A DNA stretch of 62,023 nt, filler included, from Deltaproteobacteria bacterium (GTDB taxonomy: Bacteria > Myxococcota > JACRCW01): assembly GCA_016218805.1 (NCBI GenBank). It is 3 parts of 3 records of this genome, joined end to end, with 100 filler letters (N's around TTAATTAATTAA, not from the genome) between each part and the next. Parts side by side here need not be neighbours in the genome. Positions count along the whole stretch, not along the records: positions 34,183 to 62,023 come from JACRCW010000135.1; 2 more parts are not named here. One strand, given 5' to 3'. A model generated the notes under the pieces. The model saw only the letters and a program-made list of their open reading frames with translations. It made no database searches and was not told where the DNA came from. Of the stretch, positions 34,432-62,023 are shown piece after piece; the first letter of the stretch is position 1; every line of letters begins with the position of its first letter. The position numbers were made by a program, and so were the translations under genes.

Positions 34432-35346
34432 ATGACCACCCACACCCGCCTGCCCACGCACCGCAAGCCAACGCGGACCTTCTCCGCGGCAACCCCGGCG
34501 GACCTGCCTGACGACGTTGACCTGGCGGAGCGGCTGGCAACCCTGCTGACAACTGAGGGCATGCAACTCCCACCGCTGGGGGGCACCGCGGCCCGGATGC
34601 ACCGCCTGGCGTTGGACCCGCGCTCCACGCTGGACCAAGTGCTGCAGCTCATCCAGCACGAGCCCTCCCTGGCCTTGCGTGTCATGCGCCTGGCGAACTC
34701 CGCCGCTATGTCCCCCGCACACCCCGCCAAGGACCTGCGCGCCGCGCTGTTGCGGGTGGGGATCCTGGGGGCGCGGGACATGGCGTTCGCGCTCAGCCTG
34801 GGCGCCGTGGTCCACGCCGCGGCGCTGCGGGAGGACCTCGCCGGCGTGTACCGTCACTCCTACATGGTGGCCAGCGGTTCCCATTGGGCTTGCCGCGCCG
34901 TGGGATTGGACAGCGCGCAGGGCTTCCTGTGCGGCCTGATGCATGACATTGGCGCGCTGGGCATTTTGGTGGCGCTGGCCCCGCACGTACAGAAGGACGC
35001 CACCCTGGCCAACCGGGCCGCCATCCGTCTCCTGGTGGACCGGGAGCACCAACAGGTGGGCGAAGACCTCCTCACCACCTGGCACCTCCCGTCCCTGGTG
35101 GTCGCCGTGGCGCGCTGGCACCACCGCCCGGAGCATGCCGGCGCCGCCGAGCCGCTGGTGCGCCTCATCGCCGCCGTGGACAAGGCAGCGGAGGCCATGG
35201 CGGCCAACCCGCAGGATGGTGTGGCGCCCTTGATGGAGCTGCCCGAGCTGTTTGTGGCCGGGCTCAGTCCACCGCAGGTCCGCGCGCTGGGGGTGGTGCT
35301 GGATGAAGCGGCCAAGGACAGCACGGCGGATGCGCTGGTTGCCTGA
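34432..35346 (+). CDS. HDOD domain protein
   Basis: LPPL, EPSLALRVMRLANS, GFLCGLMHDIG, HQQVG..WHLP..WHHRP. Confidence 0.92.
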   Translation: MTTHTRLPTHRKPTRTFSAATPADLPDDVDLAERLATLLTTEGMQLPPLGGTAARMHRLALDPRSTLDQVLQLIQHEPSLALRVMRLANSAAMSPAHPAKDLRAALLRVGILGARDMAFALSLGAVVHAAALREDLAGVYRHSYMVASGSHWACRAVGLDSAQGFLCGLMHDIGALGILVALAPHVQKDATLANRAAIRLLVDREHQQVGEDLLTTWHLPSLVVAVARWHHRPEHAGAAEPLVRLIAAVDKAAEAMAANPQDGVAPLMELPELFVAGLSPPQVRALGVVLDEAAKDSTADALVA

Positions 35347-35355
35347 CTGGCGCAC

Positions 35356-35672
35356 CCATGCGCGGGTCCGGACTTTTGCTGGATAGCCAGACTTTCTCTT
35401 CAGCGTCCGGCAGCAGGTAGCCCGCCCACCTCCGGCGGGGTGGACCCGGCGCGGCCTGAGCGCCCCAGGCCGATGAACGGCGCCAATGCCCGCATCCGCT
35501 GTGGCTTGCGTGAGCAGGTGCGCGTTCAACGGAATCCACATGCCCGCACACACCGCCGCGACGCCAGCACGTGTTTCACGTGACGCGAGCTGGCATGTTC
35601 TCATTGTCCGGACGAGCCGGATCCGCTGCAGCGCTGACTTGGGCGCCCCTATCCGCCGTGCCGTGACGTGCC
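35356..35672 (-). pseudogene. deletion-collapsed remnant of the TetR gene and its upstream gene (51140-52814)
   Basis: CTTTCTCTTCAGCGTCCGG.AGCAGGTAGCCC, CCAGGCCGATGAACGGCGCCA and TTGCGTGAGCAGGTGCGC are shared with 51176-51433 in the same order, with internal deletions. Confidence 0.9.
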
Positions 35673-35701
35673 GACTCCCTCAACGGGGGTCCGGGAGCTC
35701 C

Positions 35702-37447
35702 ATGCCGAATCCGATGCGGATGTTCGAGCGCGTTCTGTTGTCGCAGGTCATCTGCCTCACGGCGGTGACCGTGGCGCTGTTCGTGTGGCTGCAGACTTCC
35801 CACGGCACCTCCCGCGCCGCGCGCGCCGAGGCCATAGCGGGGCTCAAGCGCCTGGACGGCCAGCTTCACCGGGCCTTGCCGCAATCCATGACATACGCGG
35901 CCCACCGCAGGTCCCAGGACCGGGCCGCGGCGGAGGAGACGCTGCGCGCCGCCGTTGAGGAGGCGGGCCGGCTGCGCGCGCTGCTGCCAAGGCTTGAGCG
36001 GACCCTGGAGGCGCTGTCCGCACGCGCCGCGTCCATTGGGCGGTTGTTTCCTACGCTGGAGGAAGACGGCGCTGGGCCAGCGACCATGGCCGCGCTGGAG
36101 AAGGAGTTTGCCTGGGTGTTGGACGAAACGGCGCGACTGGAGGAGACGGCCATGGCCGCCGCGGAGGATCTGCAGGCCTGGCATATCCAGGTCATGTCGG
36201 CGGCTTGGATTGGTGCGCTGCTGCTGTTCCTCGTGCTCGCCGTTGTGGCGCGTTACCAGTACCAGGCGGCCACGCGGCGGGAGACCCAAACGTGGAGCGA
36301 GTTCCTGCACCGCGCTGCCGCCGCGGTGGAAGAGGGCGGCGGGGTCCAGCAGACGGCAGCGGACCCTCCGCTGCCCGCCGCCGGCACGCTGGTTCTGGCC
36401 ATCTCCCGCGCGCAGGCCGCGCGCGTGGCGCTGGGCGCGGACCTGCACCGCGAGCAGACGCGCGGCGCCGTCCTGTTCAACCTCACCCGCCGCCTGGACC
36501 TCGCGGAATCCGAGAACGACGTATGCGACGCGGTGTTGACCGCGTCCCGCGTGCTGCTCCCCCAACACGAACCGCTCTTGATGATGGCGGACAACTCACG
36601 CGCCAGCCTGGAGGTGGCGGCCGGAACCGCCCAGCGGTTGTGCGAAGCCTGCTCCCCGCTGGCCTGCCCCGCCGTGCGCTGGGGGCAGGCGTATGTCTCC
36701 GCGCCTGGCAGCGGAATGGACCGTTGCCCGCGGCTGTGCGTGGACCATCCGGCCGTGGTGACCTGCGTGGCACTGTCGGCGCGTGGCAACTCGCTGGGTG
36801 TGGTGCAGCTGGCCGGCCCCGCGCTGGAACACCGCCAGGCGGAGCTGTTGACCACCGCGGTGGTGCTCATTGGCGCGCGCTTGGGCGTGGTCCGCGCCAT
36901 GGAAGAGCGCGAAGTGCAGGCGACCACTGATGTTCTCACCGGACTTGCCAACCGCCGGGCCATGAATGACGCGCTACGCCGGCTGGCGGCGGCGGGAACG
37001 CGCTTTGCCGTGGTGGCCGCGGATCTGGACCACTTCAAACGCCTGAACGACACCTATGGCCACGAAGTGGGCGACCAGTGTCTCAAGGCGTTTGCGGGTG
37101 TGCTCCGCGAGGCCTGCCGCACCCATGATCTCCCGTGCCGGCCGGGCGGCGAGGAGTTCACGCTGGTCCTCCCCGGTTCGGACATGGCGGGCGGGCAGGC
37201 CGTCGCGGAGCGCATCCAACGTCTGCTCGCCGCCGCCTGCGAGCGCAGGGGAATGGCATTCACCACATCCCTGGGCGTTGCTGCGTGCGCGGGAGAAGGC
37301 GAGCAGGCTGCCGACGTCCTGCGACGGGCTGATGCGGCGCTGTACGCAGCCAAGGCCGCCGGACGGGATCGAATCGTTGTGGACGGAACGCCCGCGCCCG
37401 GCAACGGGCACGATCCCGCCGCCGGAGTCGTGTGCGCCAGCACGTGA
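35702..37447 (+). CDS. membrane diguanylate cyclase (2 TM, Cys-containing GAF-like, GGDEF)
   Basis: TDVLTGLANRR, DLDHFKRLNDTYGHEVGD, RTHD I-site, GGEEF, RADAALYAAKAAGRD. Confidence 0.93.
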   Translation: MPNPMRMFERVLLSQVICLTAVTVALFVWLQTSHGTSRAARAEAIAGLKRLDGQLHRALPQSMTYAAHRRSQDRAAAEETLRAAVEEAGRLRALLPRLERTLEALSARAASIGRLFPTLEEDGAGPATMAALEKEFAWVLDETARLEETAMAAAEDLQAWHIQVMSAAWIGALLLFLVLAVVARYQYQAATRRETQTWSEFLHRAAAAVEEGGGVQQTAADPPLPAAGTLVLAISRAQAARVALGADLHREQTRGAVLFNLTRRLDLAESENDVCDAVLTASRVLLPQHEPLLMMADNSRASLEVAAGTAQRLCEACSPLACPAVRWGQAYVSAPGSGMDRCPRLCVDHPAVVTCVALSARGNSLGVVQLAGPALEHRQAELLTTAVVLIGARLGVVRAMEEREVQATTDVLTGLANRRAMNDALRRLAAAGTRFAVVAADLDHFKRLNDTYGHEVGDQCLKAFAGVLREACRTHDLPCRPGGEEFTLVLPGSDMAGGQAVAERIQRLLAAACERRGMAFTTSLGVAACAGEGEQAADVLRRADAALYAAKAAGRDRIVVDGTPAPGNGHDPAAGVVCAST

Positions 37448-37513
37448 GGGCGCGCCCAATCCAGACGCAGGTGAATGCACAGCCGCGCTTCCGCTCCTAG
37501 GTGCCCCGGGGAT

Positions 37514-37862
37514 CCTGTCCTCGCATAAAGGAGACAGCCATCAAGACCCGCCGAGCTGTCGGTGCTCCGGGCGCGTTGGGACCGGGGTCCGCCCCGGCCT
37601 TGAGTCCGTCGCCATCCAACCGGCCGGAGGCCAGAACTCCAAACGCGTGGTGGGCAACATCGGTCCGGACATCTGACGGGGAGGCGGTCAGACGGAAGGG
37701 GGGGGCGGCGCCTGGCGGGGAGGCCACGCAGGAGCGCGGGTTGCGCGTGCGCGGCGCCGCTGCCAAATGAAATGACCGCGGGTGAAGAATCAGGAGTCGT
37801 GTACCCCTCCCGCACCCGCCTCGGTGACAAGGGGAAAGGTGACCACAACCATCCGTGATCAC
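37514..37862. repeat. eroded collinear remnant of 52825-53950
   Basis: TCCTCGCA..TCAA..CCCGC..GTCGG..CGGGCGCG (vs 52831-52887); GGTGAAGA..TCAG (vs 53530); ACCCGCC..GTGACCA..TCCG.GAT (vs 53900-53947). Confidence 0.55.
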
Positions 37863-37907
37863 ACACGCAACGGGCCCGCAACGGGTGTGGGTTGCCCGCG
37901 CCGGGAA

Positions 37908-40517
37908 TCAGCCAGCCAACACCTGCTGGATGACCCGCTTCAGCGCGGCCATGTCCACCGGCTTGTCCAACCGCGGGTTGTTCACGCTGTCCAGGAACGC
38001 GCGTCCGGTGGGGGTGAATGCGCCACCGCTGATGAAGACCACACGGTCAACCAACTCCGGATGGCGGCGCTTCAACTCAGCAAACAGGTCCATGCCGGTC
38101 ATGTCCGGCATCATCAGGTCACACAGGATCACGTCAAAGGGCTGCTCGGCCAGGATGGCCAGCGCCGCACGACCCCCGTCCGCCAACTGCACGTCGTGGT
38201 CGTTTTGGAGGATCCGGCGCAACCCCACGGCCACCAGCGGGTCGTCGTCCACCACGAGGATCCTGCCCCGCGCGGCTGCGTCGGGCGGCGCATCCTCCCC
38301 GGGCGTACCGCGGGAGGCCCCGGAGGACGGCGGGAGCGTCACGGTGAAGCAGCTGCCTACGCCAACCCGGCTCCTGACAGTCAGTGTGCCGCCGCAGGAC
38401 GCAATGATCGCCTTGCAGATGCTGAGGCCCAGACCCGTCCCCTGGCCCACGGGCTTGGTGGTGAAGAACGGGTCAAAGATGCGCTCCTGGAGTTCCTCCG
38501 GAATTCCGCACCCCGTGTCATGCACTTCCACCACCGCGTCACCGTCGTCGCCCGTCCGGATCCTGACGCGGATCTCGTTGGTCCCCGCCTGGCCCTCCGG
38601 GATGGCGTGGGCGGCGTTGATCAACAGGTTCAGGAACACCTGGCCAAGCTTGGACTCGTTGGCATCCACCAGCGGGGCCACTCCAATCTCGCGGGTGAAC
38701 TGAGCCCGGTGCCGCACGTGGTTCCACGCCAGGGACACCGCCGCTTCCAGGACGCGGACCAGGGATGCCGGCCGCACGGGTTCATCCTCGGCGGAACGGG
38801 AGAGCGTACCCAGGTCCCGCGCAATCCTCCGGACGCGCTCCGCCCCGTCCCGCGCGTCGTTCACCGCTGAAATCACATCGTCCAGATGTGCCTCCATCCC
38901 GCACTGCCGGGTCACATCCGCCTGTTTGAGTCCCTCCATTCTCGCCGCAACGTGCTGCAGGTTCGCCAGCACATAGCTGAGCGGGTTGTTGATCTCGTGG
39001 GCCACGCCGGCAGCCAGCGTGCCCGCAGCCAGCATCCGGTCCATCTCCAGCGCCTTGGCGGCCAGAACCTGCCCGGTGGACACATCCCTCAGAATACCAA
39101 TGAACGCGGCGTCACCCCCAATCCCGCACGCGCTGACGGTGCATTCTACCGGGAACACAGTGCCATCCCTTCGCCGCCCCTCCAGCAGACGGGCTCCAAC
39201 CGGGGGCACCGCCGCCACCAATGTCCGTTCATTCGGCGCCGCGCCCTCGGGGCATGCCAGCATGGCCAGACACCGCCCGATGAGTTGATCCCCGTCCCAG
39301 CCGAACATCTTCTCCGTCGCGGCGTTGTTGTACGTAATCCGCCCCTGCGCATCCAGAAGCACCACCGCGTCCGTGGCGGACTCCACCACCGCGTTGAAGC
39401 GCGTTTCGGAGGCGGCCGCGCGTGCTACCAGCGCCTCTTCCTGGGTCAGGTCCTCGGCCACCAGCAACAACCGCTGTGGCCCCGCACCGTCGTCCATGGC
39501 GGCCAACGTCGCCCGCATGTGGCGGCGCTCGCCCAGACTGCCACACCCGTCCAACAGCAGCGCGCGCCGCGTCTGGCGGGTGGCCAACACTTCGGCCACC
39601 GCATCCCGCAGCCGCTCGCCGCCCAGGAACGCGGTAACCGGACGCCCCAGCACGTCAGACTCGGACAGCCCCAACGTAGCCGCCAGCCCGCGGTTGGAGC
39701 GCAACACGGTGAGGTCCTCGCGCAGCACCAGCATGATGACGGGCACGCATTCAATGATCATCTCCGCCTGGCGCCGCTGTCCTTCTGACGTGGCCAACAT
39801 GTGCCCCGCCTGTTCTGCCATCTCATTGAAAGCACCCGATAGAACCGCGAGCTCGTCCTTGCTGTTCAAGCGCACCCGGATGGAATAGTCCCCGCCACGC
39901 ACCCGCCCGGCGGCGGCGGTCAGTTGCTGCAACGGCCTCACCAGGAACCGGCGGGTCAGCACCAGCCCGGCGAGCAGCACCAGCAGAACCACTCCCAGAA
40001 GAGTCCCCAGCCCGAGCATGAGGTTCGCGCGCAGCCGGTGCATGCGCGCTTCGTAGGCGTTGACCAACGCCTCTGAACGCACCCGCAGCTGCTCCATGCT
40101 AGCGTCCGTCCGCGACGACACGGCAGCCCCAGGCCCCAATCCCCCGGCAGCAACCCGCCGCAGGTCCACAACCACCACCTGCCATTGCGCCTCCACCGCA
40201 TCCAGCGCCGGGAGAAGCTCCGCGGGCGCGGGACCAAGCCGGGGGTCCGCGGAGTCTCCGTGGCGGAGACGGTGCAACGCGGACGAGAAGGCCTCCGTCC
40301 GCTCCTGCAGCCCGGCGCGATCCTCCAACTGCCCGGCGGACACCATGTTCAACCAGGACCGCAGCTCCACGGACAGCATCCGCTGCCGCCCGGCAAGGTT
40401 CAGAAACCGCGCGTCTGACCGGGTTTCCCGCAGGTGGTCCGCCACGACGACCACCCCCACCAGCGCGGCGAGCAGAGGGAACACAAGCACCAAGCCCACC
40501 TTGGTGGTCAGTCTCAT
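37908..40517 (-). CDS. hybrid histidine kinase: NarX/PilJ-type sensor, HAMP, 2xPAS, HisKA, HATPase, REC
   Basis: P-box-like LNLAGRQRMLS; GVAHEINNPL; FFTTKPVGQGTGLGL; LVVDDD..LCDLMMP. Confidence 0.92.
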   Translation of the reverse strand: MRLTTKVGLVLVFPLLAALVGVVVVADHLRETRSDARFLNLAGRQRMLSVELRSWLNMVSAGQLEDRAGLQERTEAFSSALHRLRHGDSADPRLGPAPAELLPALDAVEAQWQVVVVDLRRVAAGGLGPGAAVSSRTDASMEQLRVRSEALVNAYEARMHRLRANLMLGLGTLLGVVLLVLLAGLVLTRRFLVRPLQQLTAAAGRVRGGDYSIRVRLNSKDELAVLSGAFNEMAEQAGHMLATSEGQRRQAEMIIECVPVIMLVLREDLTVLRSNRGLAATLGLSESDVLGRPVTAFLGGERLRDAVAEVLATRQTRRALLLDGCGSLGERRHMRATLAAMDDGAGPQRLLLVAEDLTQEEALVARAAASETRFNAVVESATDAVVLLDAQGRITYNNAATEKMFGWDGDQLIGRCLAMLACPEGAAPNERTLVAAVPPVGARLLEGRRRDGTVFPVECTVSACGIGGDAAFIGILRDVSTGQVLAAKALEMDRMLAAGTLAAGVAHEINNPLSYVLANLQHVAARMEGLKQADVTRQCGMEAHLDDVISAVNDARDGAERVRRIARDLGTLSRSAEDEPVRPASLVRVLEAAVSLAWNHVRHRAQFTREIGVAPLVDANESKLGQVFLNLLINAAHAIPEGQAGTNEIRVRIRTGDDGDAVVEVHDTGCGIPEELQERIFDPFFTTKPVGQGTGLGLSICKAIIASCGGTLTVRSRVGVGSCFTVTLPPSSGASRGTPGEDAPPDAAARGRILVVDDDPLVAVGLRRILQNDHDVQLADGGRAALAILAEQPFDVILCDLMMPDMTGMDLFAELKRRHPELVDRVVFISGGAFTPTGRAFLDSVNNPRLDKPVDMAALKRVIQQVLAG

Positions 40518-40578
40518 CCCGTACCCCAACGACGTTGACGGCTCACTCAGAGAAGGGCTGCGCACTCGCGGCACCTTT

Positions 40579-40592
40579 CATGGGTACCCATG
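40579..40592. promoter_or_regulatory. perfect 14-bp palindrome in a divergent promoter region
   Basis: CATGGGTACCCATG; contains TACCCAT on both strands. Confidence 0.4.
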
Positions 40593-40804
40593 GAACGGGC
40601 GCCACGGTGTCCCCATGCAAAGCCGCCGCCAACTGTCCGAAGGATCAGGAGACGCACCGAGGCGGGGGCCTGCTGCTGCTGCCTTCACACTCCACCCTTC
40701 CGCGCCGATGCCGTTACGACGCAACAACTTGGCGGCCGTGTTGAAGCGTGGGTGGTCACCGAGTATGGACTACAAACAATGGGGGGGGTGCTGAGGCTGG
40801 GGCA

Positions 40805-41746: not shown

Positions 41747-41773
41747 GGCCGCGCGGAAAGGCGTTGTTGCCCA

Positions 41774-45607: not shown

Positions 45608-45611
45608 TCCA

Positions 45612-51805: not shown

Positions 51806-51807
51806 GG

Positions 51808-53431: not shown

Positions 53432-53538
53432 GGACGGACCCCGTGGAGTTTGTGTTGGACCAGCCTGCGGAAACAGGACGGCCGCGGTGGAGAGGTCTCC
53501 GCCGCGGCCGCATCCCGCTTGACTGTCTGGTGAAGATG

Positions 53539-53751: not shown

Positions 53752-53914
53752 GGTTCTTCCTCCGTGCTGGGGTTGACTTACGTACATCTTGATTCATCGC
53801 ACCTGGCTGCCCCCATGTCCACACCATAAAGACACTGGTATTCCGTGTGTGCATGGTTCCCACACCGCGAATTTCGAAGGCAACACGCCACGAAGCCCGA
53901 CCCGCCCTTCCCCT

Positions 53915-53930
53915 GTTTGACGATGTAAGG
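53915..53930 (-). promoter_or_regulatory. 16-bp motif, left copy
   Basis: Reads CCTTACATCGTCAAAC on the minus strand; 15/16 match to 55979-55994. Confidence 0.5.
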
Positions 53931-54084
53931 GAGTGACCATCCGCGATTCAGTGGTCGTCACATCCGGGCAAGCGGAGGTCGGCGGAGCGCTCGTTGCGGA
54001 CTTGCCGCACCGGGCCTGCATGGTCAAACGCGGCCTTCACGCAAAAGTGGCACTCCGGTTCCGCAGTGGTACAGGTCGGCGGCC

Positions 54085-55911
54085 ATGACCAACGGCAAGG
54101 GCAAGAATGCTCGTCCCGGCCCAACAAGCACGGCACAGGAGATCCTCTCCGCGTTGGTGGACCGGGAGGGAGCCACGGCTGTTACGGAGGCGCTAGGCCG
54201 AGTTCTCGCCGAGCGGCGCGCGGGCGCGCCCTCCGCCCGCGCGGAGCAGGTTGCCCACCATATCCGCGCTGGAGAACCCCGGCGCGCACGGCGGGAGCTG
54301 GGACCCCGCTGGCGAGACGCCATCTCCGACGATCCCGAGGTGACGGTGGGGCACGCAGAACTGGCGACACTGCGTGGGGACATGCAGCTTGCCCGGCATC
54401 TGCTGTGGTCGGTGGCTCACGTCGACTCGCCAGGGCTCCAGGCACGACGCCGCATTGCGCTCGCCCTTTCGTACTTCCTGGAGGACCGGCATGACCGTTC
54501 CCTGGCCGCCGCCCGGCTGGCCTCCCAGGAGCCCCTGTTCACGGAGATCGCCCAAGCGGTTGAGGCGATGTCGCTCATTGGATTGGGACGCATTGACCGC
54601 GCTGAGGCGATGCTCGCGGCGGCTGGACGGACCCGGACGGGCTTGTTGGCCGCCGTGGGTGCGTGCGCCGCCTATCGCCGTGGGGATCTGCTGGCATGCC
54701 TGGACGAGCACAAGACCACCCTGGACGTCCTATCCAACGAGGGCGACCTGGTGGCCCGGTCCGTCCTGGCGCGTCCATTGGCATGGGCGGCCATGCGCCT
54801 TGGCCGGTTTGACGAGGCAGAGGTGTTTCTTCAGGCCGAGGAAACCACCTGTGGCCAAACCGGCCTCCCGGCGCTGGCGCCGCTGCTGGACGCGGACCGC
54901 GCTGAGCTCGCGGCGGCGCGCGGGCATCTCCCGGAGGCCCGCGAACGAGTCCGCCGGGCGCTCGCAGCCTCCCCCAACTCGCCCGATGTGCGCATCAACG
55001 CCTGGGCCCTTGGCGAGCCGGTCCCACCGCCGCACTGCGGGCCTGCCGCGGTGCACGCCTGGGGAGACCTCAAGGCCGCTGAGCACGCCCTTGAGACTGG
55101 ACACCGGAGCGAAGCGGCCACGAGGGCCCAGACCGCCGCCCAATGGTATCGGGAGGTGGGTGCCTGGTACGAGGTCGCGCGTGCACAGCTGGCTTCCGCC
55201 GAGGCCAACGCGTGGGAGGCGCCGCTGGACGCGGGGCTCGCACTTGCCGAATGCGAACGGATCGCTGAGACGCGTGGCTATGGCCCAATCAGGGTGGGAG
55301 CTTCGCTGGTGCGGGCCAGCATCGCGGATCGGGGTGGCGACCTGGCCGGATACAGGCAGGCCATGGAACAGGCCCTTGCGCGCGCCGGGACGGCAGTGGA
55401 CCGGTCGTTGGCGTCGGCGTGCTCGCGGTGCGGCGTGCCAGCGGGTTCGGCCTTGGGAACGGATTGCCCGTGGAGGAGCCGCGTTCAGCGCCTGGGTCTT
55501 GACCGGCCTGCCACGGACGTCTGGACGCTGGGGCCGCGCGTGCACCTGCTGTCCGCCGGAGAGGCCGCCCCGGTGCCGGTGGACATTGAGGTGGACAGGG
55601 CGCGCAACGTCATCGTCATCGGCGGGTGCGCTCATGCGTCCACCCCTCAGCGACAGCAACTGCTCGCGTTGTTCGGACGAGCCGGCCAGGGGGGTGTCTC
55701 GCTTGAAGAGATCCACCGCGCCGTGGGACCGGGATGCGTCTATCACCCCCTGCGGCACCGGGACGCGCTGTACGTCGCGGTGGCACGGCTCCGTGCGTGG
55801 GTGGAACCACTGGTCCACGCGCCCGTGCTGGCGCGGGATCCCACCGGCTATCGCGTCGTGAACGGCGTGCGTGTTGCGGTGCGTGAACCCAACTGCGCAG
55901 TGCCCCCATGA
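54085..55911 (+). CDS. TPR-like helical protein with C-terminal OmpR-type winged-helix DNA-binding domain
   Basis: Ala/Leu-rich repeats; VSLEEIHRAV..YHPLRHRDALYVAVARLR..GYR. Confidence 0.75.
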   Translation: MTNGKGKNARPGPTSTAQEILSALVDREGATAVTEALGRVLAERRAGAPSARAEQVAHHIRAGEPRRARRELGPRWRDAISDDPEVTVGHAELATLRGDMQLARHLLWSVAHVDSPGLQARRRIALALSYFLEDRHDRSLAAARLASQEPLFTEIAQAVEAMSLIGLGRIDRAEAMLAAAGRTRTGLLAAVGACAAYRRGDLLACLDEHKTTLDVLSNEGDLVARSVLARPLAWAAMRLGRFDEAEVFLQAEETTCGQTGLPALAPLLDADRAELAAARGHLPEARERVRRALAASPNSPDVRINAWALGEPVPPPHCGPAAVHAWGDLKAAEHALETGHRSEAATRAQTAAQWYREVGAWYEVARAQLASAEANAWEAPLDAGLALAECERIAETRGYGPIRVGASLVRASIADRGGDLAGYRQAMEQALARAGTAVDRSLASACSRCGVPAGSALGTDCPWRSRVQRLGLDRPATDVWTLGPRVHLLSAGEAAPVPVDIEVDRARNVIVIGGCAHASTPQRQQLLALFGRAGQGGVSLEEIHRAVGPGCVYHPLRHRDALYVAVARLRAWVEPLVHAPVLARDPTGYRVVNGVRVAVREPNCAVPP

Positions 55912-55978
55912 GCCGGTTGGCCAGGGCCGCGCCAGCCCCGCCGTCAGGAACCGGGCGATGGGTGCGCCGACGGGTGCG

Positions 55979-55994
55979 CCTTACATCGTCTAAC
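55979..55994 (+). promoter_or_regulatory. 16-bp motif, right copy
   Basis: CCTTACATCGTCTAAC. Confidence 0.5.
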
Positions 55995-56157
55995 GCCGGC
56001 AGCCGGGGTCAGCTCCTCTGGGAGCAACCAGCACTTTTGGACAGTATTCCCGCTCCTGCCCACGCATAAGACTGCGCCGTCCAGCGGGGGACAGGAGCAC
56101 GCACATGGGGTCCGCGCAGCCCAGACCCACGCCGGTGTTGGCCGTGGTGGTGGCGAC

Positions 56158-58752
56158 GTGACACCGCGGCTCACGTTGGGTGTGAAGCTGGCGGGCATCC
56201 TGGTCCCGCCGTGCCTGGCCCTGGTGCTGGTGGCGGGTCACGGCCTGGTGGAGCGCTGGCGGGTACTGGGCTCCATGACGCAGGTGGAAACCCAGGTGAC
56301 CGTCAGCCTTCACGCCAACGCGCTGGTACATGAACTGCAGAGGGAGCGCGGGGCAACCAGCCTGTTTGTCGCAAGCCGGGGAGCGCGCTTTCAAGCCGAA
56401 GTGGACGCCCAGCGCCGGCAGACGGACCTGGCCCTGGAGGTGCTGCGCGCGCTCCAGCTCCGCGCCGCCGGTGCGGATTGGGCAGATCAGGTGGCCGGGG
56501 CGCTGGCGCCCCTGGAGGGGCTGACCAGGCTGCGCAAACGCGCGGACAACCTCGGGCTGGCAGCACCGGAGGTCTTTGATTGGTACACGGGCGTCATTGA
56601 GCGCGGGCTGGACCTGATGACGGACATGTCCGCCGTGCGGGCCAGTTCGGAGATTCACGCCGCGCAGGTGGCGGCCATCCATCTTTCATGGGCCAAGGAG
56701 ATGAACGGGCGCCAGCGGGCCTATCTCAGCCGCGTGTTCTCCACGGGTGACCGGGGACCGGATGTGCTGGACGGCCTGACGCGCCTGCGCACCGCCCAGG
56801 AGGTCCACACACGCACCTTCTCGCTCCACGCGTCGCCCGAACACCGGCGCCTGCTGGCAGACGCGCTGGCCAACGCTCCGGAGGTGAAAGCCGCGCAGGA
56901 AATGTGGGGAATTGCGGAACGCCGGGCAATGTCCGGGGATTACGGTGTGGACGCGACCCGGTGGTTCACCGCCATCACGGGGAGGATTGACCGCCTCAAG
57001 ACGGTGGAAGACCACCTGTTGGGTGACCTGGTGTCCACCGCCCGCAACCTGCGGGATGACGCCCGCGATGGCCTGGTGGCGTTTGTGGTCCTCGCCCTGT
57101 CCGCCGTGCTGGCGTGCCTGGCCCTGGGAGTCACGCTCATCCGCAGCACCACCCACTCGCTGCGGAAGATGGTGGGCGCCGCCCGTCGGATTGCGGATGG
57201 GGACCTTGCCGTGGTGCTGGAGGTGCATTCGCGTGACGAGATAGGCGCGTTGGCCGCTGCGTTCCGCGGCATGACCGCCAACCTCCGGAGCATGGTCGGG
57301 CGAGCGCAGGAACTGTCGGCCGCGGTGGATGCGGTGGTGGCCACCAATGCAACCGCGAGCGACCGGATGAAGCGTGGCGCCCTTGAGCAGACGCACGCCG
57401 TGCATTCCGCGGACCGCGCCATGGCCAACCTCAGCCGCGCGGCCACCTCCATGACCCGGTCCATTGAGGGCTTTTCCAGGCTGCTGGAGCAGAACTCGGG
57501 CGCCGTGCTGTCCAGCGCCCTGGCGGGGCAGGGTCTGGACGAGAGCGTGGGCCAGTTGGGCGTGGAGGTGGCCGAAGTGGCCCGGGCCAACACTGCCAAC
57601 GCCGAGGACCTGGTGGGCATTGCGCAGAAGCTGGCACGGGCCTCCACCGAGTCAGACGGCGCGGTGGCCACCCTGGTGCAGATCGATGCCGCGACGCGGC
57701 AGATCGCCGGGCATACGCGGGAAGCCGCGGTGCTGGCGCGGGAGATGTCCCAGCACGGCAGCCGCGGCGCGGCGTCCACCCAGGCCACCCATGCAGGCCT
57801 GCAGACGGTGAAGAACCACGTTGTTGGTCTGGTGGACGTCATCCGGCAGACGGACGTTCAGGCGCGTGAGATCGGAAGCGTGCTTGCGGTGATCGAGGAA
57901 TTCGCGCGCCGGTCGCGGCTGCTTGCGCTGAACGCCAGCATCCTGGCCGCGGAAACCGGCAACCGGGGCCGCGGGTTTGACGTCGTTGCCTCCCAGATGA
58001 ACGACCTTGCCCAGAAGACCGCCCAATCCACCCTCCAGGTCACCACCATCCTCACGGGCATTGCCAGCCTGGTCAGCCGGAGCGTGGACTCCGCGCAGGC
58101 GGCCATGACGTGCGTGTCCAACTGCGAACGCCAATCGCAGGAGACGGCCGAAGCCCTGGACGGGATGCGGCGACGCACCGTGACCATGGAGGAGGCCAGC
58201 GCGCAGGTGGCACACGCCACCGAGGACCAGGTCAAAGGCTCCAATATCGCCACGAACAACCTGGACCGGCTGTCACACGCCATCCGCGCCATCAGCCAGT
58301 CCGTCGTGGAGCTTTCCGGGCGCACCTCCGCCGTGGTCCACGCCATGGATCGGGTGGGCGAGCTGGTGGGGCGTATCAAGGGCAGCACGAGCGAACAGGC
58401 GGCGGATACCCGGCAGATAGCCACCAATACCGGCAAGGTCATGGAGGCCATCCAGGACATCAACCGTGAGGCGGACGTCCAGGAGAACGAGAGCGGCAGC
58501 ATCTCGGCCGCGCTGCGCGGGGCTTCGCTGGTGGCCGAGTCCACCGTCCGGGGTGTGTGCCAGCTTGATGAGGGCCTGCTCGTACTCCGGGGCCACGCCC
58601 AGGCGCTTCGGAAGGAAATGAACCGATTCAAGCTGGGAACCGATTCTGCTCCAACACCAACGGGGGAAGGGAGAAGTCATGAACGTGAACAACCAGGACT
58701 ACCTGGCAGGACTGCGGACTGCGCACCGGGTCGTGGAGCGGCTGTTGGATGA
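56158..58752 (+). CDS. methyl-accepting chemotaxis protein with NIT (nitrate/nitrite) sensor domain and HAMP
   Basis: LVHELQRERG, AKEMNGRQRA, WFTAITGRID; DEIGALAAAF; divergent tip SRLLALNASILAAETGNRGRGFDVVA. Confidence 0.92.
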   Translation: MTPRLTLGVKLAGILVPPCLALVLVAGHGLVERWRVLGSMTQVETQVTVSLHANALVHELQRERGATSLFVASRGARFQAEVDAQRRQTDLALEVLRALQLRAAGADWADQVAGALAPLEGLTRLRKRADNLGLAAPEVFDWYTGVIERGLDLMTDMSAVRASSEIHAAQVAAIHLSWAKEMNGRQRAYLSRVFSTGDRGPDVLDGLTRLRTAQEVHTRTFSLHASPEHRRLLADALANAPEVKAAQEMWGIAERRAMSGDYGVDATRWFTAITGRIDRLKTVEDHLLGDLVSTARNLRDDARDGLVAFVVLALSAVLACLALGVTLIRSTTHSLRKMVGAARRIADGDLAVVLEVHSRDEIGALAAAFRGMTANLRSMVGRAQELSAAVDAVVATNATASDRMKRGALEQTHAVHSADRAMANLSRAATSMTRSIEGFSRLLEQNSGAVLSSALAGQGLDESVGQLGVEVAEVARANTANAEDLVGIAQKLARASTESDGAVATLVQIDAATRQIAGHTREAAVLAREMSQHGSRGAASTQATHAGLQTVKNHVVGLVDVIRQTDVQAREIGSVLAVIEEFARRSRLLALNASILAAETGNRGRGFDVVASQMNDLAQKTAQSTLQVTTILTGIASLVSRSVDSAQAAMTCVSNCERQSQETAEALDGMRRRTVTMEEASAQVAHATEDQVKGSNIATNNLDRLSHAIRAISQSVVELSGRTSAVVHAMDRVGELVGRIKGSTSEQAADTRQIATNTGKVMEAIQDINREADVQENESGSISAALRGASLVAESTVRGVCQLDEGLLVLRGHAQALRKEMNRFKLGTDSAPTPTGEGRSHEREQPGLPGRTADCAPGRGAAVG

Positions 58753-59119
58753 CCTTGGGAATCAGATCCGCTTGGGTGACGTGCGCGGTGCCACGGCGAC
58801 GTTGAGGCGGCTGCAGGAGTCCCTTCTGGCGCATCTCAAGAGCGAGGATGAGAAACTGTACATTGACCTGAAATCCGCCGATCCGAGCGGAACCGGCGGC
58901 ATGATCTCCGTGACGGTGAGCACCTTCTCCACGGCCATGCGGGGAATCTCCGCGCGCGCGGACCGCTTCTTCAAGAAGTACGGCGACGGCGCCGCCATCT
59001 CCGGAGACCCCAAGGGACTGCAGAGTGACTTTGCCAACCTCCAGGCGGACATCCTCAGGCGCATCCAGTCTGAGGAAACCGTGCTTTACCCGCTCTATGA
59101 GAAGCACTGCGGAGGCTGA
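58679..59119 (+). CDS. hemerythrin-like (HHE cation-binding) protein
   Basis: AHR..LLAHLKSEDEKLY..RIQSEETVLYP. Confidence 0.85.
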   Translation: MNVNNQDYLAGLRTAHRVVERLLDDLGNQIRLGDVRGATATLRRLQESLLAHLKSEDEKLYIDLKSADPSGTGGMISVTVSTFSTAMRGISARADRFFKKYGDGAAISGDPKGLQSDFANLQADILRRIQSEETVLYPLYEKHCGG

Positions 59120-59172
59120 TTGCCGCGGCGGCGACGACCCGCATCCGGAGCGAAGCGCAGGGGGCCAGGACC

Positions 59173-61098
59173 ATGGGTGATGCGCGCGTCATCACGTTTC
59201 TCTATGGGCTGGCGTTCTTCGCCATGGGGACCGCCGTGTTCGCCCGCGCACGCCCGTTGCGGAGGGAGCGGCGGGCACGGGCCTTCCTGTGGCTGGCCGC
59301 TTTCGGATTGAGCCACGGTTTTCACGAGTGGCTGGACCTCTATGGCCGCGTGGTGGGTCCCCACGCCGGGGTGCGCCTGATTGAAGCCACGCTGGCCGTG
59401 CTCTCCTTCGGGTGCCTGCTCCAGTTCGGACTTGATCTTCTCACCATTGAATCGGCGGCGCGCTCCCGCTGGGTGACGCACCTGTCCACCTTGGCGGTCA
59501 CGGGGTTGCTGCTGGCACTGGGTCTCGGGCTGGGGGAACGGACACTCATGGTCGTGGGGGCGAGGTTCCTCGCCGGAGCGCCGGGTGCCTGGTTTGCGGT
59601 GGTTGGCCTGTGGCGCGGCCGCCGGCACCTGTTCACCGGCCCGGGCGGCACCTCCCGGCGTGCGCGGCTCATTGGCACGGCCATGATCCTGTTCCTTGGC
59701 GCGTACGGGCTGGCCACCCTGCCGGGACCGCGCGGAGACTTCTTCCCAGCCAACGCTCTCAACGAAGTGGCGTTCCTCCAGCTGCTGGGCGTGCCCATCC
59801 AGGTGGTCCGCGCCATTCTCGCGGTGGGCGTGAGCGCCATGGCCCTGCTGTCCCTGGACGTGTTCGACAGGATCGAGTGGCAGCGACTGGAGACCCAACT
59901 CGCGGCGGCGACCGCGGCGGCGGAACGGTCGTACGTCAGTTTCCGGAAGATGATCGAGAAATCCGCCGACGGCATTGGCGTCTTCCGCGACAACCGTCTT
60001 GTCTATGCCAACCGGGCGTATTCAGGTCTGCACGGTGCGGCTGACGCCGGGGCGCTCCTTGGCCAGGACCTGGCGGACACAGTCCACCCCGACGACCGCC
60101 ACCACCTGGACCTCCTGCTCGCACCCTCCTCGTCCCCCGGCGACGCCCGCGCCTCGGCCGACCTGCGGCTGGCGCCGCGTGATGGCAGGACGCTGGAGGT
60201 GGAACTGAGCGCTATGGCCCTGGACTTTGACGGCGCCCCCTGCGTGTTGATCAACGCGCGCGACCTGACGGACCGCAAGCGCGACACCGCCCGAACCATG
60301 CATGTGGACCGGATGATCGCGGTTGGCACATTGGCCGCTGGGGTGGCCCATGAGATCAACAACCCGCTCACCTACGTCGCATCCAATCTCGGCTATTTGG
60401 CCCAGCACCTGCCGGGGTTGATCTCCGAATGCGCGGCGTCCCGCGCGCGGCAGGTGACCCTGGCCGGCGGTCCCGGAACGGGTGAGAGCACCAAGGTTCC
60501 CGTGGGGGAGTTGGCGGCGGCCGTTCGCGAGGCCTTGGATGGCGTGAGCCGGGTGACCATGATTGTGCGGGACCTCAAGACGTTCTCCCGCACCGCGCCG
60601 CAGTGCCATGGCCCGGTGGACGTGCGCCGGGTGCTTGACACCGTGGTCAGGCTTGCGACGGCAGAGACCCGCCATCGCGCCCGCGTGGTCAAGGACTTTG
60701 CCGTGGTCCTGCCGCCGGTTGCCGCCGAGGAGACACGGCTGGGGCAGGTATTCCTGAACCTGCTGGTGAACGCCGCTCAGGCCATCCCGGAGGGAAGCGC
60801 AGAGACCAACGAGATTCGACTCATGGCCTGCCCGGCGGGCGCCGGACGGGTCATGGTGGAGGTGCGTGACACGGGTGCGGGCATTCCAGTGGAAACGCTC
60901 CCGCGCATCTTTGACCCGTTCTTCACCACCAAGCCAGTCGGCCAGGGGACAGGTCTTGGTCTGTCCATCTGCCGGGGCATCGTCGAGGGCCTGGGTGGCG
61001 AGATCGTCGTTGAAAGCCAGGTTGGCAAGGGTTCCGTCTTCCGCGTCATCCTACCGGCGGGAGTTCACACCGCCGCCGGGCCTGTCGTGAAGGGGTGA
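59173..61098 (+). CDS. multi-TM sensor histidine kinase with PAS (no REC domain)
   Basis: FLYGLAFFAMG..LAAFGLSHGFHEWLD membrane domain; GVAHEINNPL; FFTTKPVGQGTGLGL. Confidence 0.92.
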   Translation: MGDARVITFLYGLAFFAMGTAVFARARPLRRERRARAFLWLAAFGLSHGFHEWLDLYGRVVGPHAGVRLIEATLAVLSFGCLLQFGLDLLTIESAARSRWVTHLSTLAVTGLLLALGLGLGERTLMVVGARFLAGAPGAWFAVVGLWRGRRHLFTGPGGTSRRARLIGTAMILFLGAYGLATLPGPRGDFFPANALNEVAFLQLLGVPIQVVRAILAVGVSAMALLSLDVFDRIEWQRLETQLAAATAAAERSYVSFRKMIEKSADGIGVFRDNRLVYANRAYSGLHGAADAGALLGQDLADTVHPDDRHHLDLLLAPSSSPGDARASADLRLAPRDGRTLEVELSAMALDFDGAPCVLINARDLTDRKRDTARTMHVDRMIAVGTLAAGVAHEINNPLTYVASNLGYLAQHLPGLISECAASRARQVTLAGGPGTGESTKVPVGELAAAVREALDGVSRVTMIVRDLKTFSRTAPQCHGPVDVRRVLDTVVRLATAETRHRARVVKDFAVVLPPVAAEETRLGQVFLNLLVNAAQAIPEGSAETNEIRLMACPAGAGRVMVEVRDTGAGIPVETLPRIFDPFFTTKPVGQGTGLGLSICRGIVEGLGGEIVVESQVGKGSVFRVILPAGVHTAAGPVVKG

Positions 61099-61128
61099 CG
61101 CGGGGTCTTGACGCACGCGCAATAGGAG

Positions 61129-61554
61129 CTACGGCTTTGACGGCACACGCCCCAGCGTCTCGTACTCCGGGTACAGGACCACCTCCTCCTTGCGGATGCG
61201 TGCGCGCAGGGCGGCCATGAACTTCCCCTGTTCGCGGGCAAACTGGAACGAGTCCACCGGGCGGGCGTCATCTCCGAAGCGCTGGAAGAACTCAACGGCC
61301 ATGGCGGACACCACATCCATGTCCGCCGCGAACTGATCCAGCGTGGACCGCAGCGCCGGACGGGTCCGCGCCGCCGCGGCCAGCGCCGGGTACATCTCCT
61401 TGTCCTCCAGGGCCAGGTGCGCCAGCAGGGCATCACGTGCGCTCAACAGCAGTTTCCGTCCCTCGGGTGAAGAAACCCCGCGCTCAGTCACGGCGTTCAG
61501 CAGCGCAACCAGCTCCCGGTGCTGCGCACTCAGCTTTTCGATCAAGGGTGACAT
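61129..61554 (-). CDS. hemerythrin-like (HHE cation-binding) protein
   Basis: GGAGGAG RBS; QHRE..LLAHLALEDKEMYP..RIRKEEVVLYP. Confidence 0.88.
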   Translation of the reverse strand: MSPLIEKLSAQHRELVALLNAVTERGVSSPEGRKLLLSARDALLAHLALEDKEMYPALAAAARTRPALRSTLDQFAADMDVVSAMAVEFFQRFGDDARPVDSFQFAREQGKFMAALRARIRKEEVVLYPEYETLGRVPSKP

Positions 61555-62023
61555 CGCTCCTCCTGCCCGCCCCGCGCGCTCCTCGGACACAGTCTTGGGT
61601 GGGGATCACACGCCGTCAACGGGGCTGCCAGATCGCGCAAGGCCTGCTGTCCACCGCTCCCTGAGCGCGCCGCCTTGCGCCGCCAGCAGCCCGACCGGTG
61701 GCACACCGCCGAACCGCTGCTTCGTCTTTGCCCATTGTGCAACCCGGTATGGGTCGCGCGCCGGGGGCCCACCCGCTGGCGCGCCCCTGCGGGATCCCCT
61801 CATTTGCCGTTGAGCCACCGTGAGGGCAGGCTATGCGGAGCAAGCCGGGTCCGGGAGGACTCCCCACCCTTTCGTCAAGGTAAATTCGTTGCTAGCCCCC
61901 CTTGGCGATGGCCGCTGGGATCGGCCATCGGTTTGGGTCGTAGGTGGTGTCGTTCCGGAGCATGGCGACGAGGACAGACAAGAGCCGGTCACCGACGATT
62001 CGGAGCGCATGGCCGTGTTCGCA

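Follow-up and report, generated by a model that had tools for sequence, protein, structure and literature searches.

How did one bacterial contig come to carry the same gene ends twice, in the same order and orientation, around two different sets of genes? The window, the whole stretch of 62,023 nucleotides that was analyzed, consists of joined contigs with an N linker at 34083-34182, and positions 34183-62023 represent one whole contig (G000:C102, 27,841 bp). The source organism is an uncultured groundwater bacterium, its genome a 170-contig draft assembled from a groundwater metagenome. An earlier note had read 35.3 to 51.1 kb as a collinear "ghost" of 51.1 to 61.6 kb, explained either by tandem duplication with reciprocal loss or by stacking of two alleles. 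The frame consists of the following features.

34432 to 35346, plus strand: gene of 304 aa with an HDOD domain, anchoring the frame on the left (Pfam HDOD, E 2e-32; GC3 0.88)
35308 to 35346, plus strand: HDOD tail, left copy, the functional gene end (33 of 38 positions identical to 51092-51129)
35347 to 35556, minus strand: dead fragment of the tetR 3' end, stub A' (BLASTN, 86% and 81%; MAFFT alignment)
35557 to 50803, no strand: interior of the left block (X; 15.2 kb) with nine intact genes (Pfam, NCBIfam, GC3, translations)
50804 to 51034, minus strand: Hr2 3' stub (B'), a frameshifted hemerythrin-like fragment (core 50804-50987 with 61130-61312, 84%)
51035 to 51098, no strand: junction zone, left-copy end to right-copy start (direct reading)
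51092 to 51129, plus strand: right copy of the HDOD tail, dead, with the stop TGA reading TGC (alignment)
51140 to 51805, minus strand: intact tetR, 221 aa (Pfam TetR_N, TetR_C_15; GC3 0.82-0.87)
61129 to 61590, minus strand: intact hemerythrin-like gene Hr2, anchoring the frame on the right (Pfam Hemerythrin, E 2e-12)

The same-orientation tandem frame proposed earlier is real: each block begins with the HDOD tail and the tetR 3' end and finishes with the Hr2 3' end. Homology has a sharp onset at 35308/51092, with no similarity to the right block in the alignment upstream of 35308, ends in the middle of tetR at about 35556/51463, and resumes at the Hr2 stop codon at 50804/61130. The end of the left block adjoins the start of the right one, the Hr2 stub being followed by the HDOD tail and the intact tetR from 51092 onward. 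This stub reaches to 57-104 bp before the second HDOD tail, and over this final stretch the alignment with Hr2 is weak, so that the position of the right breakpoint is approximate. Positions 51073-51098 of the junction resemble 61615-61630, and a GCCA microhomology shared with 35311-35314 possibly contributed to the joint, judging from the letters on both sides.

BLASTN at word size 7 (34201-51100 against 51101-62023) yielded 64 hits at E ≤ 10. All direct matches with E < 1e-3 were within the tetR or Hr2 end regions: 50804-50987 with 61130-61312 (84.4% over 186 nt, E 6e-44), 35317-35423 with 51101-51206 (86.1% over 108 nt, E 3e-24), 35433-35539 with 51346-51449 (81.3% over 107 nt, E 3e-20), and one further, weaker piece, also in the tetR region. 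Strong inverted matches of 38328-39043 and 42204-42685 to 61059-60305 (~63%) were set aside as histidine-kinase domain paralogy, which is not collinear. Seven pairs of matching stretches had been claimed, and these were evaluated by local alignment against 200 dinucleotide shuffles and against 150 segments drawn at random from this genome, the HDOD-tail pair against the shuffles alone and the other six against both controls. Three pairs, with an identity of ~84-87%, stood out clearly: the HDOD tail (z 17.8; 0/200 shuffles reached its score), the tetR 3' end (z 26.9; 0/200 shuffles and 0/150 segments), and the Hr2 3' end (z 66; again 0/200 and 0/150). Three others were background. The score of 37514-37862 with 52825-53950 was reached by 61/200 shuffles and 121/150 segments (z 0.5), which means that this pair is absent; that of 44262-44367 with the 54-56 kb gene by 4/200 and 15/150; and that of 49695-49875 with the 5' end of the NIT-MCP gene, a GC-rich alignment of ~65% identity, by 2/200 and 2/150, which is not convincing. 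The remaining pair, 51073-51099 with 61614-61630, is suggestive only, with 3/200 shuffles and 1/150 segments for a 71-bp target and 120/1000 controls for a wider target of 711 bp.

The assertion that most intergenic gaps are collinear ghosts was not borne out, since the interior pairs are at background and neither DNA nor protein searches revealed an interior remnant. Searching the left block with the right-block proteins (tblastn) returned the tetR stub and the Hr2 stub and nothing else beyond kinase-domain paralogy, and the reverse search with the left-block proteins revealed no remnant in the right block, the remaining match being 42-43% kinase-domain paralogy. As had been noted, the nine genes of the left block are intact (continuous ORFs with a coding-type GC3 pattern) and have no counterpart in the right copy by tblastn.

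35486 or ~35702 to 37447, plus strand: GGDEF gene (Pfam/NCBIfam)
37908 to 40574, minus strand: PilJ-HAMP-PAS hybrid kinase (Pfam/NCBIfam)
40748 to 41746, plus strand: PAS-LuxR gene (Pfam/NCBIfam)
41774 to 44041, minus strand: PAS hybrid kinase (Pfam/NCBIfam)
44459 to 45607, minus strand: first Cys-rich protein
45612 to 47252, minus strand: second Cys-rich protein
47220 to 48608, plus strand: protein with 3 × 110-aa repeats
48832 to 49656, plus strand: protein with a hydrophobic N terminus
49924 to 50406, minus strand: bacteriohemerythrin (Pfam/NCBIfam)
50480 to 50605, minus strand: partial PEGA-domain gene copy, non-coding, 127 bp (97.6% to G000:C23:5878-6004, 1-bp deletion)
50624 to 50742, no strand: piece of a dispersed intergenic repeat (88-89% to C97:20892-20994)

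Nothing in its composition marks block X as a later arrival, because it is native-like: its tetranucleotide correlation with the genome is 0.979, the 6.7th percentile of genome windows. Searches of the 15.2 kb found no mobile-element gene, tRNA, or terminal repeat. The PEGA-domain gene on C23 is intact (continuous ORF, GC3 0.93), and the copy at 50480-50605 is a captured fragment of younger age. The adjacent repeat recurs as an ~89% piece on C159 and at 74-81% on C141, C146, and C132.

The right block and the contig ends contain, in addition, the following features.

51808 to 53431, minus strand: two genes upstream of tetR, ~333 aa (Met at 52809) and 152 aa (coding-type GC3)
54085 to 55911, plus strand: protein of 608 aa, TPR matches weak (Pfam TPR_14, E 0.0065, under the cut-off)
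56158 to 58752, plus strand: NIT-HAMP-MCP chemoreceptor (Pfam NIT, E 3e-50, HAMP, MCPsignal)
59173 to 61098, plus strand: PAS histidine kinase HK3 (Pfam)
34183 to 34323, no strand: right ~140 bp of a dispersed (MITE-like) repeat of ~230-240 bp, forming the contig start
61787 to 62023, no strand: dispersed repeats at the contig end (matches to other contigs of the genome)

The tetR gene comes last in a row of minus-strand genes that also includes 51808-52809 and 52973-53431, and a gap of 2 bp separates it from the upstream ORF, which makes the right-block content the likelier original company of tetR. The two upstream genes had no Pfam or NCBIfam match and no relative among the genome contigs searched, the 608-aa protein was absent from G001-G003, and Hr2 had no other copy in the genome. 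HK3 is 42-43% identical to both left-block kinases, with equal or better paralogs on C144, C54, C164, and C26; a 30-bp spacer lies between its stop codon and that of Hr2. The statement that no transposase or integrase is present is true within the contig, yet both contig ends are dispersed repeats. The one at 34183-34323 has copies of 95-100% identity on ~18 other contigs, mostly at contig ends, and a full copy at G000:C10:5827-6070; at the other end, 61853-62023 matches the end of C139 (99.4%), 61912-62023 matches C169:1-112 (100%), and 61787-61862 matches C70 at 92%.

The tetR stub matches the C-terminal ~107 codons of the intact gene with deletions of 26 bp and 102 bp (tblastn: aa 115-138 and 197-217). 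It differs at 25 of 186 sites (p 0.134), distributed 7:9:9 over the codon positions, with 8 synonymous and 17 non-synonymous differences. Homology of the Hr2 stub begins at the Hr2 stop codon and stops after the equivalent of ~220 bp of the 462-bp gene (tblastn: aa 111-147 at 84%; aa 81-108 at 52%, E 8e-4); here, the differences amount to 30 at 182 sites (p 0.165), distributed 8:6:16, 15 of them synonymous. A 111-aa ORF at 50803-51138 has a different frame from that of Hr2. Pooled, the differences are distributed 15:15:25, and 23 of 55 are synonymous. A rough model of our own predicts ~40% synonymous differences for one neutral and one constrained copy and ~70% for two constrained copies, so these substitutions would fit the former and not two constrained genes. 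Frameshifts or deletions disrupt both stubs, and the substitutions are even over the codon positions, which indicates long neutral evolution. This pattern, with third positions accounting for 25/55 differences, contradicts a recent origin by stacking of two functional alleles. Divergence is alike in the HDOD tail (5/38), the tetR segment, and the Hr2 segment, which fits a single event.

We consider that there is about an even chance that the locus is a scar left by a single, old head-to-tail duplication of a ~10.5 kb unit, with the left interior replaced by the nine-gene block. The unit may have been copied in place by illegitimate, possibly microhomology-mediated, recombination; it would have begun 35-39 bp ahead of the HDOD stop codon and reached into or just past Hr2, with the tetR row, the TPR protein, NIT-MCP, and the PAS kinase between, and the novel joint would be placed at 51035-51098. 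The right copy, 51092 to ~61630, would have stayed intact. The left copy would have lost its function almost at once, with its two ends, the tetR and Hr2 stubs, as survivors, and the stretch from the tetR 5' half to the kinase would have been replaced by 15.2 kb with nine genes for signaling and surface proteins of native-like composition. The geometry of the frame, the neutral decay of both stubs, the lack of interior remnants, and a physically real joint are what the data show; the microhomology at the breakpoint, this order (duplication first and replacement soon after), and the source of the nine-gene block are inferred. Direct local repeats are common in this genome (53 of 59 same-contig repeat pairs are direct and 6 inverted, at ≥100 bp, ≥75% identity, and 0.5-60 kb apart), which counts for a tandem duplication. 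The direct repeats remaining in the locus, ~370 bp at 85% identity with a longest exact run of 21 nt, are too diverged for ready collapse by homologous recombination, and this would explain why the structure persisted. The right edge of block X coincides with the Hr2 stop codon within 1-2 bp, an observation counted against replacement and unexplained for a random one. The native-like composition of the block and the lack of mobile-element genes, tRNAs, or terminal repeats in it count against this reading as well.

It is very improbable that the contig is an assembly artefact joining two strain variants or loci, even though the genome is a metagenome draft in 170 pieces and the contig is bounded by dispersed repeats. 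In independently assembled Logan contigs from X1, the likely source run, and X2, from the same study, which gives support that is not fully independent, the joint was recovered. A 3,839-bp X1 contig covers the HDOD-stub-GGDEF joint (34295-38133) and one of 9,469 bp runs from 50904 over 51092 past 54182 through the Hr2 stub, HDOD tail, and tetR, both with no differences; a 537-bp X2 contig bridges the latter joint again (50846-51344, 8 differences). In X1, every long piece from the two blocks has a depth of 24.8-26.9, uniformly ~25x. Bridging in two samples together with uniform depth makes an artefact unlikely, and the ≤21 exact nucleotides shared by the copies are too short to mislead a k-mer assembler. 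Logan contigs break at the 127-bp two-copy repeat (50480-50605/C23), so that what ties the nine-gene block to the Hr2 stub is the original assembly together with the C23 ORF, a continuous frame that crossed assembly paths would break; a break there would still leave both stubs and the joint. Separate copying of a tetR/HDOD and an Hr2 fragment into non-coding DNA by two unrelated small duplications is just as remote. The genome does capture gene fragments in spacers, such as the 97.6% copy from C23, and contains many short local repeats, but the two fragments point the same way, have diverged to a similar extent, and sit exactly at the expected ends of a tandem copy, and the Hr2 fragment ends ~57-104 bp from the start of the segment copied by the other one.

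A second, diverged version of the locus from a related strain (HDOD, tetR remnant, nine-gene block, Hr2) may have been stacked beside the resident HDOD-tetR-...-Hr2 when a circularized or illegitimately joined fragment integrated in a Campbell-like manner, with no duplication in situ; this is unlikely, if less so than the two preceding possibilities. It produces the same geometry, supplies a source for the nine-gene block, and explains why the homology sets in at precisely the Hr2 stop codon, much as it would where a variable island meets its conserved flank; some third-position excess in the Hr2 stub (16/30, 15 synonymous) also speaks for it. The tetR stub, in contrast, bears no trace of purifying selection, and its pattern together with the pooled synonymous count indicates that most divergence arose after the left copy had died. 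Neither a second allele nor a related strain is visible: the TetR sequence occurs on one contig only, the next-closest public homolog being 49% identical, and metagenome contigs contained nothing closer than 34% for HDOD. No related genome carrying the locus was present in the collections searched, which makes old stacking inseparable from in-situ duplication. More doubtful than stacking is reciprocal loss from a duplicated ~26 kb unit that held both gene sets, the left copy losing the tetR 5' half to the kinase and the right copy GGDEF to bacteriohemerythrin. No outside DNA would be required, both blocks are native-like in composition, and the gene sets are fully complementary; deletions were at work in both stubs, and the 30 bp that separate the stop codons of the kinase and Hr2 might reflect a deletion trimmed back to the borders of the genes. 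Against this, two clean deletions (~9.7 and 15.2 kb) would be needed, with their inner ends meeting in one intergenic spacer, and lost genes left no remnant in either direction at the DNA or protein level, although the equally old stubs of tetR, Hr2, and HDOD (~440-540 bp) are still ~85% identical. With the interior ghosts at background, this route has no positive evidence. Of the earlier interpretation, the tandem frame is supported; reciprocal loss is not, and keeps a low probability.

With one old duplication and a replaced left interior as the preferred reading, the locus is an ordinary kind of genome rearrangement and not a gene-by-gene "ghost." Spontaneous segmental tandem duplications of bacterial chromosomes form by illegitimate or short-homology recombination and are stabilized later by loss or divergence of one copy; most of those described are recent and unstable. 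This locus has in common with them the same orientation, a novel end-to-start joint, decay of the redundant copy into pseudogene stubs, and breakpoints inside genes on both sides (the HDOD 3' end, and in or just past Hr2). It differs in that the left interior is a different, intact nine-gene set instead of a decayed right copy and, from most described cases, in the age of the joint (~15% divergence). Variable genomic islands sit between conserved flanking genes and are exchanged by homologous recombination in these flanks. Here, too, two different cassettes lie between the same flanks, the tetR side and the Hr2 side, and homology on the Hr2 side starts exactly at a gene border; unlike in such islands, both cassettes are in one genome in tandem, the tetR-side border is mid-gene, one flank pair is dead with neutral and not purifying divergence, and no strain with the alternative allele was found.

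Tandem duplication-random loss is known from animal mitochondrial genomes. Two tandem frames, complementary gene sets, and pseudogene remnants at some positions are shared with it, whereas the remnants here are only at the two frame ends and not where the supposedly lost genes would have been, and an outgroup with the union order is not available. A literature search returned no paper pairing tandem duplication with reciprocal loss in bacterial genomes; the papers found on tandem duplication-random loss in prokaryotes were, by their titles and abstract openings, mitogenome studies only. In Whitworth 2015 (PMC4603909), differences between myxobacterial two-component gene sets are attributed mainly to lineage-specific loss, with contributions of lateral acquisition and some local duplications. 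That study compares gene inventories across genomes, and a frame of duplicated ends with dead stubs, as seen here, is not among the things it describes; the locus agrees with its pattern as an island of signaling genes with local duplication and turnover of the gene set.

The right block of the locus, at about 51.1-61.6 kb, provides with its start and its end a frame around the left block, at about 35.3-51.1 kb, and the end of the left block abuts the start of the right block. This is the mark of a segment of about 10.5 kb having been duplicated head to tail. According to the match boundaries, which were taken from MAFFT and tblastn, homology sets in abruptly at 35308/51092, 39 bp ahead of the stop codon of the HDOD gene, a stop that reads TGC in the right copy, and extends across the 3' portion of tetR as far as about 35556/51463, with 26 bp and 102 bp missing from the left copy. 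A second homology starts at 50804/61130, at most 1-2 bp from the stop codon of Hr2, the right block's intact hemerythrin-like gene, and stays strong as far as 50987/61312; the dead Hr2 stub in the left block can be traced at the protein level to 51034 (Hr2 residues 81-108, 52%, E 8e-4). The novel joint leads from this stub (to at least 51034) within 57 bp into the second HDOD tail at 51092, the position of the breakpoint being approximate, and the zone 51073-51098 possibly shares a GCCA overlap with 35311-35314. The flanking repeats are diverged gene fragments of 230-370 bp and not att-like. Between them, no collinear homology along the whole unit was found by BLASTN, tblastn and genome-segment controls: the ends match and the interiors are unrelated.

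Features of contig C102 (positions 34183-62023)
34183-34323, partial copy of a MITE-like dispersed repeat of about 230-240 bp (full copy at 5827-6070 of contig C10; about 20 copies, 95-100% identity)
34432-35346, + strand, HDOD gene (left block)
35347-35556, dead 3' piece of tetR (tetR stub)
35486-37447, + strand, GGDEF cyclase, long ORF from 35486 with alternative starts near 35702 (left block)
37908-40574, - strand, PilJ-HAMP-PAS hybrid kinase (left block)
40748-41746, + strand, PAS-LuxR regulator (left block)
41774-44041, - strand, PAS hybrid kinase (left block)
44459-45607, - strand, Cys- and Ser-rich protein with 20 Cys (left block)
45612-47252, - strand, Cys-rich protein, 546-aa ORF with 78 cysteines, no family match (left block)
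47220-48608, + strand, three-repeat protein, repeats of about 110 residues, no Pfam or NCBIfam match (left block)
48832-49656, + strand, protein with a hydrophobic N-terminus (left block)
49924-50406, - strand, bacteriohemerythrin (left block)
50480-50605, fragment of a PEGA-domain gene, 127 bp, frameshifted, 97.6% identical to the intact gene on contig C23 (5820-6347, - strand)
50804-51034, dead 3' piece of Hr2 (Hr2 stub)
51140-51805, - strand, TetR, with two same-strand genes of no assigned function upstream (right block)
54085-55911, + strand, 608-aa protein with weak TPR matches (right block)
56158-58752, + strand, NIT-HAMP-MCP chemoreceptor (right block)
59173-61098, + strand, PAS kinase (right block)
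61129-61590, - strand, Hr2, hemerythrin-like gene (right block)
61787-62023, dispersed repeats at the contig end, 171 bp shared with the end of contig C139 (99.4%) and 112 bp with the start of contig C169 (100%)

Some of these genes have features of their own. The longest GGDEF reading frame begins, at 35486-35556, on the strand antisense to the tetR stub, and over its initial 18 codons it shares 83% identity with the antisense-translated intact tetR; in-frame ATGs are found at 35540, 35702, 35714 and 35720. The true start of the cyclase gene, and perhaps also its promoter, may be located inside or just beyond the dead stub. Both Cys-rich genes, at 44459-45607 and 45612-47252, have an unusual codon-position GC content with GC2 higher than GC1. 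A 330-bp tandem repeat at 47848-48550 encodes the three repeats of the protein at 47220-48608, and the antisense ORF at 47249-48325 is probably spurious. The 111-aa ORF at 50803-51138 was rejected as a gene, being out of the Hr2 frame and without a coding GC3 pattern. Paralogs of four left-block genes are present on contig C164 (29735-39445 and 52978-53361), namely of a kinase (44%), the GGDEF cyclase (46%), the second kinase (57%, full-length) and the bacteriohemerythrin (40%), which hints at an older paralogous signaling cluster.

The window consists of several contigs joined to 62 kb, with an N linker and a short AT spacer at 34083-34182. Everything at positions 1-34082 belongs to other contigs (C86 in the first part), so that nothing to the left of 34183 neighbors the duplication locus. 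Positions 34183-62023 are contig C102 in its full length of 27,841 bp, from a draft genome of 6.43 Mb, 170 contigs and 92% completeness. Dispersed repeats flank this contig on both ends. The majority of the copies of the MITE-like repeat are located at contig ends, and the half-copies there overlap in a stretch of about 55 bp (C10:5927-5981 in the full copy); this repeat is the chief cause of the contig breaks, including that at the start of C102. At the other end, the right neighbor of Hr2 is ambiguous in the assembly because the terminal sequence is common to C139 and C169.

The public runs containing the locus are groundwater metagenomes of a single study. In run X1, possibly the source sample, a Logan contig of 3,839 bp spans 34295-38133 with zero differences, another of 9,469 bp covers in part 50904 to beyond 54182, also with zero differences, and all long pieces of both blocks have a depth of 24.8-26.9. 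Run X2 of the same study contributes a Logan contig of 537 bp with 8 differences that covers 50846-51344. The two decisive joints thus occur in assemblies made independently, and the two blocks are equally abundant. Exact identity between the copies extends over 21 nt at most. A caveat concerns the connection of the nine-gene block with the Hr2 stub: it crosses the 127-bp PEGA copy, at which the Logan contigs break. The counterpart on C23 lies within an uninterrupted ORF, which makes the assembled pairing the sensible one. The PEGA fragment on C102 occupies the intergenic stretch that separates the bacteriohemerythrin gene from the Hr2 stub; it has the look of captured filler and is far younger than the duplication. 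Two further runs, X3 and X4, cover the locus thinly, and none of their pieces listed bridges a joint. The 15 joints listed, beyond which there were a further 108, did not include a recombinant one from 35.3 kb to 51.1 kb without the nine-gene block.

The earlier note had read most gaps of the left block as collinear "ghosts" of the right block, in seven pairs, and had proposed a word-size-7 BLASTN with shuffles as a check. This comparison yielded 64 matches at E<=10. The direct matches with E<1e-3 were confined to the tetR or Hr2 end regions: 50804-50987/61130-61312 (84%, E 6e-44), 35317-35423/51101-51206 (86%, E 3e-24), 35433-35539/51346-51449 (81%, E 3e-20) and one weaker tetR piece. The seven pairs were also given local-alignment scores, with 200 dinucleotide shuffles and 150 random genome segments as controls. 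The matches of Hr2 (z 66) and tetR (z 26.9) were reached by none of the 200 shuffles and none of the 150 segments, and that of the HDOD tail (z 17.8) by none of the 200 shuffles, the control used for this pair. These three far exceed the controls and are real; all are direct, with reverse-strand scores at background. The pair at 37514-37862 was equaled by 61 of 200 shuffles and 121 of 150 segments and that of the 44.3-kb gap by 4 and 15, respectively, placing both in the background, and the pair of the 49.7-kb gap was marginal (2 of 200 and 2 of 150), with a GC-rich alignment of about 65% identity. The end pair 51073-51098/61615-61630 passed on a narrow target (1/150) and did not pass on a wider one (120/1000), so it is suggestive; as a microhomology breakpoint it was rejected, not being significant alone. 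With three pairs real, one suggestive and three absent, the reading of most gaps as ghosts does not hold. The GC content is about 68% throughout the window, which makes weak nucleotide matches cheap, and the locus is a warning of how easily such matches are over-read.

The divergence of the matching pieces was used to judge their age and state. Differences number 25 among 186 sites in the tetR stub (7:9:9 by codon position, with 8 synonymous and 17 non-synonymous), 30 among 182 in the Hr2 stub (8:6:16; 15 and 15) and 5 among 38 in the HDOD tail, and this similarity fits a single event. Pooled for both stubs, 25 of the 55 differences (45%) were at third positions and 23 of 55 (42%) were synonymous. 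This matches the pattern of one drifting and one constrained copy and not that of two selected genes, an expectation that is a rough estimate made for this analysis, and indicates that the left copies have been dead for nearly all the time since the split. Differences are not concentrated at third positions and synonymous sites, as they would be if two functional alleles had been stacked recently, and this speaks against a recent form of the allele stacking suggested before.

By BLASTN and tblastn, the left interior of 15.2 kb (35557-50803) contained no remnant of the right-block genes, and the right block contained none of the interior genes; apart from the two stubs, tblastn in both directions showed nothing but kinase paralogy of a generic kind. 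Kinase identity between the blocks is 63% at the nucleotide and 42-43% at the amino acid level; it was rejected as evidence for a block duplication because the match is inverted and each kinase is equaled or surpassed by paralogs in other parts of the genome. Both blocks are native-like in composition, with a GC content of 0.68 and a tetranucleotide correlation with the genome of 0.979 in the left interior (6.7th percentile of genome windows) and 0.976 in the right block (12.7th percentile). As noted before, there is no transposase or integrase: neither these nor a relaxase appeared among 25 ORFs searched with Pfam and 10 with NCBIfam. No tRNA gene was found in 34183-62023, and the locus has none of the marks of a mobile island, that is, mobility gene, tRNA or att site, or foreign composition. 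The gap between the tetR start and the nearer upstream gene is 2 bp, and this tight row suggests that the right-block content is the original company of tetR.

A DNA search of 41 genomes (the source and 40 relatives) gave matches at the domain level only. In G001, the sole genome of the same family, an HDOD homolog (45%) has a radical SAM gene and a Ser/Thr kinase as unrelated neighbors. The three nearest genomes, G001 to G003, showed no synteny with the locus and no orthologs of the chemoreceptor, the 608-aa protein or the PAS-LuxR regulator. TetR reached at most 34-37% across most of its length in the 41 genomes, with shorter N-terminal matches of up to 46%, and 49% in its closest homolog among 5.8 billion proteins. 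Metagenome contigs scanned for HDOD contained 44 loci, the best at 34%, and genome-contig scans with the 333-aa tetR neighbor and the chemoreceptor gave no match. Since no related locus was present in the genomes, contigs and proteins searched, the rival histories are inseparable here.

The simplest history would be a head-to-tail duplication of the segment of about 10.5 kb, soon followed by replacement of the interior of the left copy by the nine-gene block. As an alternative, a diverged version of the locus may have been integrated beside the resident one long ago in a Campbell-like manner, which would account for the homology border at the Hr2 stop codon. A signaling island of about 26 kb may also have been duplicated, each copy keeping a complementary half after clean reciprocal loss, an event in a free-living bacterium resembling tandem duplication-random loss (TDRL) in animal mitochondrial genomes. 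Two large deletions would be enough for this, no outside DNA would be needed, both blocks look native and no gene was retained twice. The ends of the deletions would have to coincide, however, and no remnants were found in either copy where the lost genes would have stood, the three interior pairs being matched by genome segments (121, 15 and 2 of 150) and tblastn finding none in both directions. This makes such an origin rather improbable and leaves the gene-by-gene ghosts with reciprocal loss, as originally proposed, unsupported.

The locus bears a duplication scar, genuine though ordinary, whose content has turned over. The genome is rich in local direct repeats: among 59 same-contig repeat pairs, on 39 contigs, 53 have the direct and 6 the inverted orientation. 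Direct pairs 5-24 kb apart with 84-96% identity are found at C85:10818-11206/18887-19241, C133:98403-98589/107835-108019, C24:137-652/24968-25483 and C19:57360-59003/64530-66163, and these may be more duplication frames of the same kind. At present, this is an ordinary rearrangement in a lineage without sequenced close relatives. It is also a clean, datable case of turnover in a signaling-gene neighborhood of a large, signaling-rich genome: of the two frames that a local duplication left behind, one now holds a different set, comprising a diguanylate cyclase, two hybrid kinases, a LuxR regulator, surface proteins and a hemerythrin, which adjoins the original one of the TetR row, a nitrate-type chemoreceptor, a kinase and a hemerythrin-like protein. 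Given sequences from relatives, the locus could reveal whether such islands grow by duplication and replacement, by allele stacking or by duplication and complementary loss. In the part of the literature covered by the search, TDRL appeared in mitochondrial studies only, and no paper on tandem duplication with reciprocal loss in bacterial genomes was found. For myxobacteria, a published survey traces differences in two-component gene sets mostly to loss, and further to lateral acquisition and some local duplications (PMC4603909).
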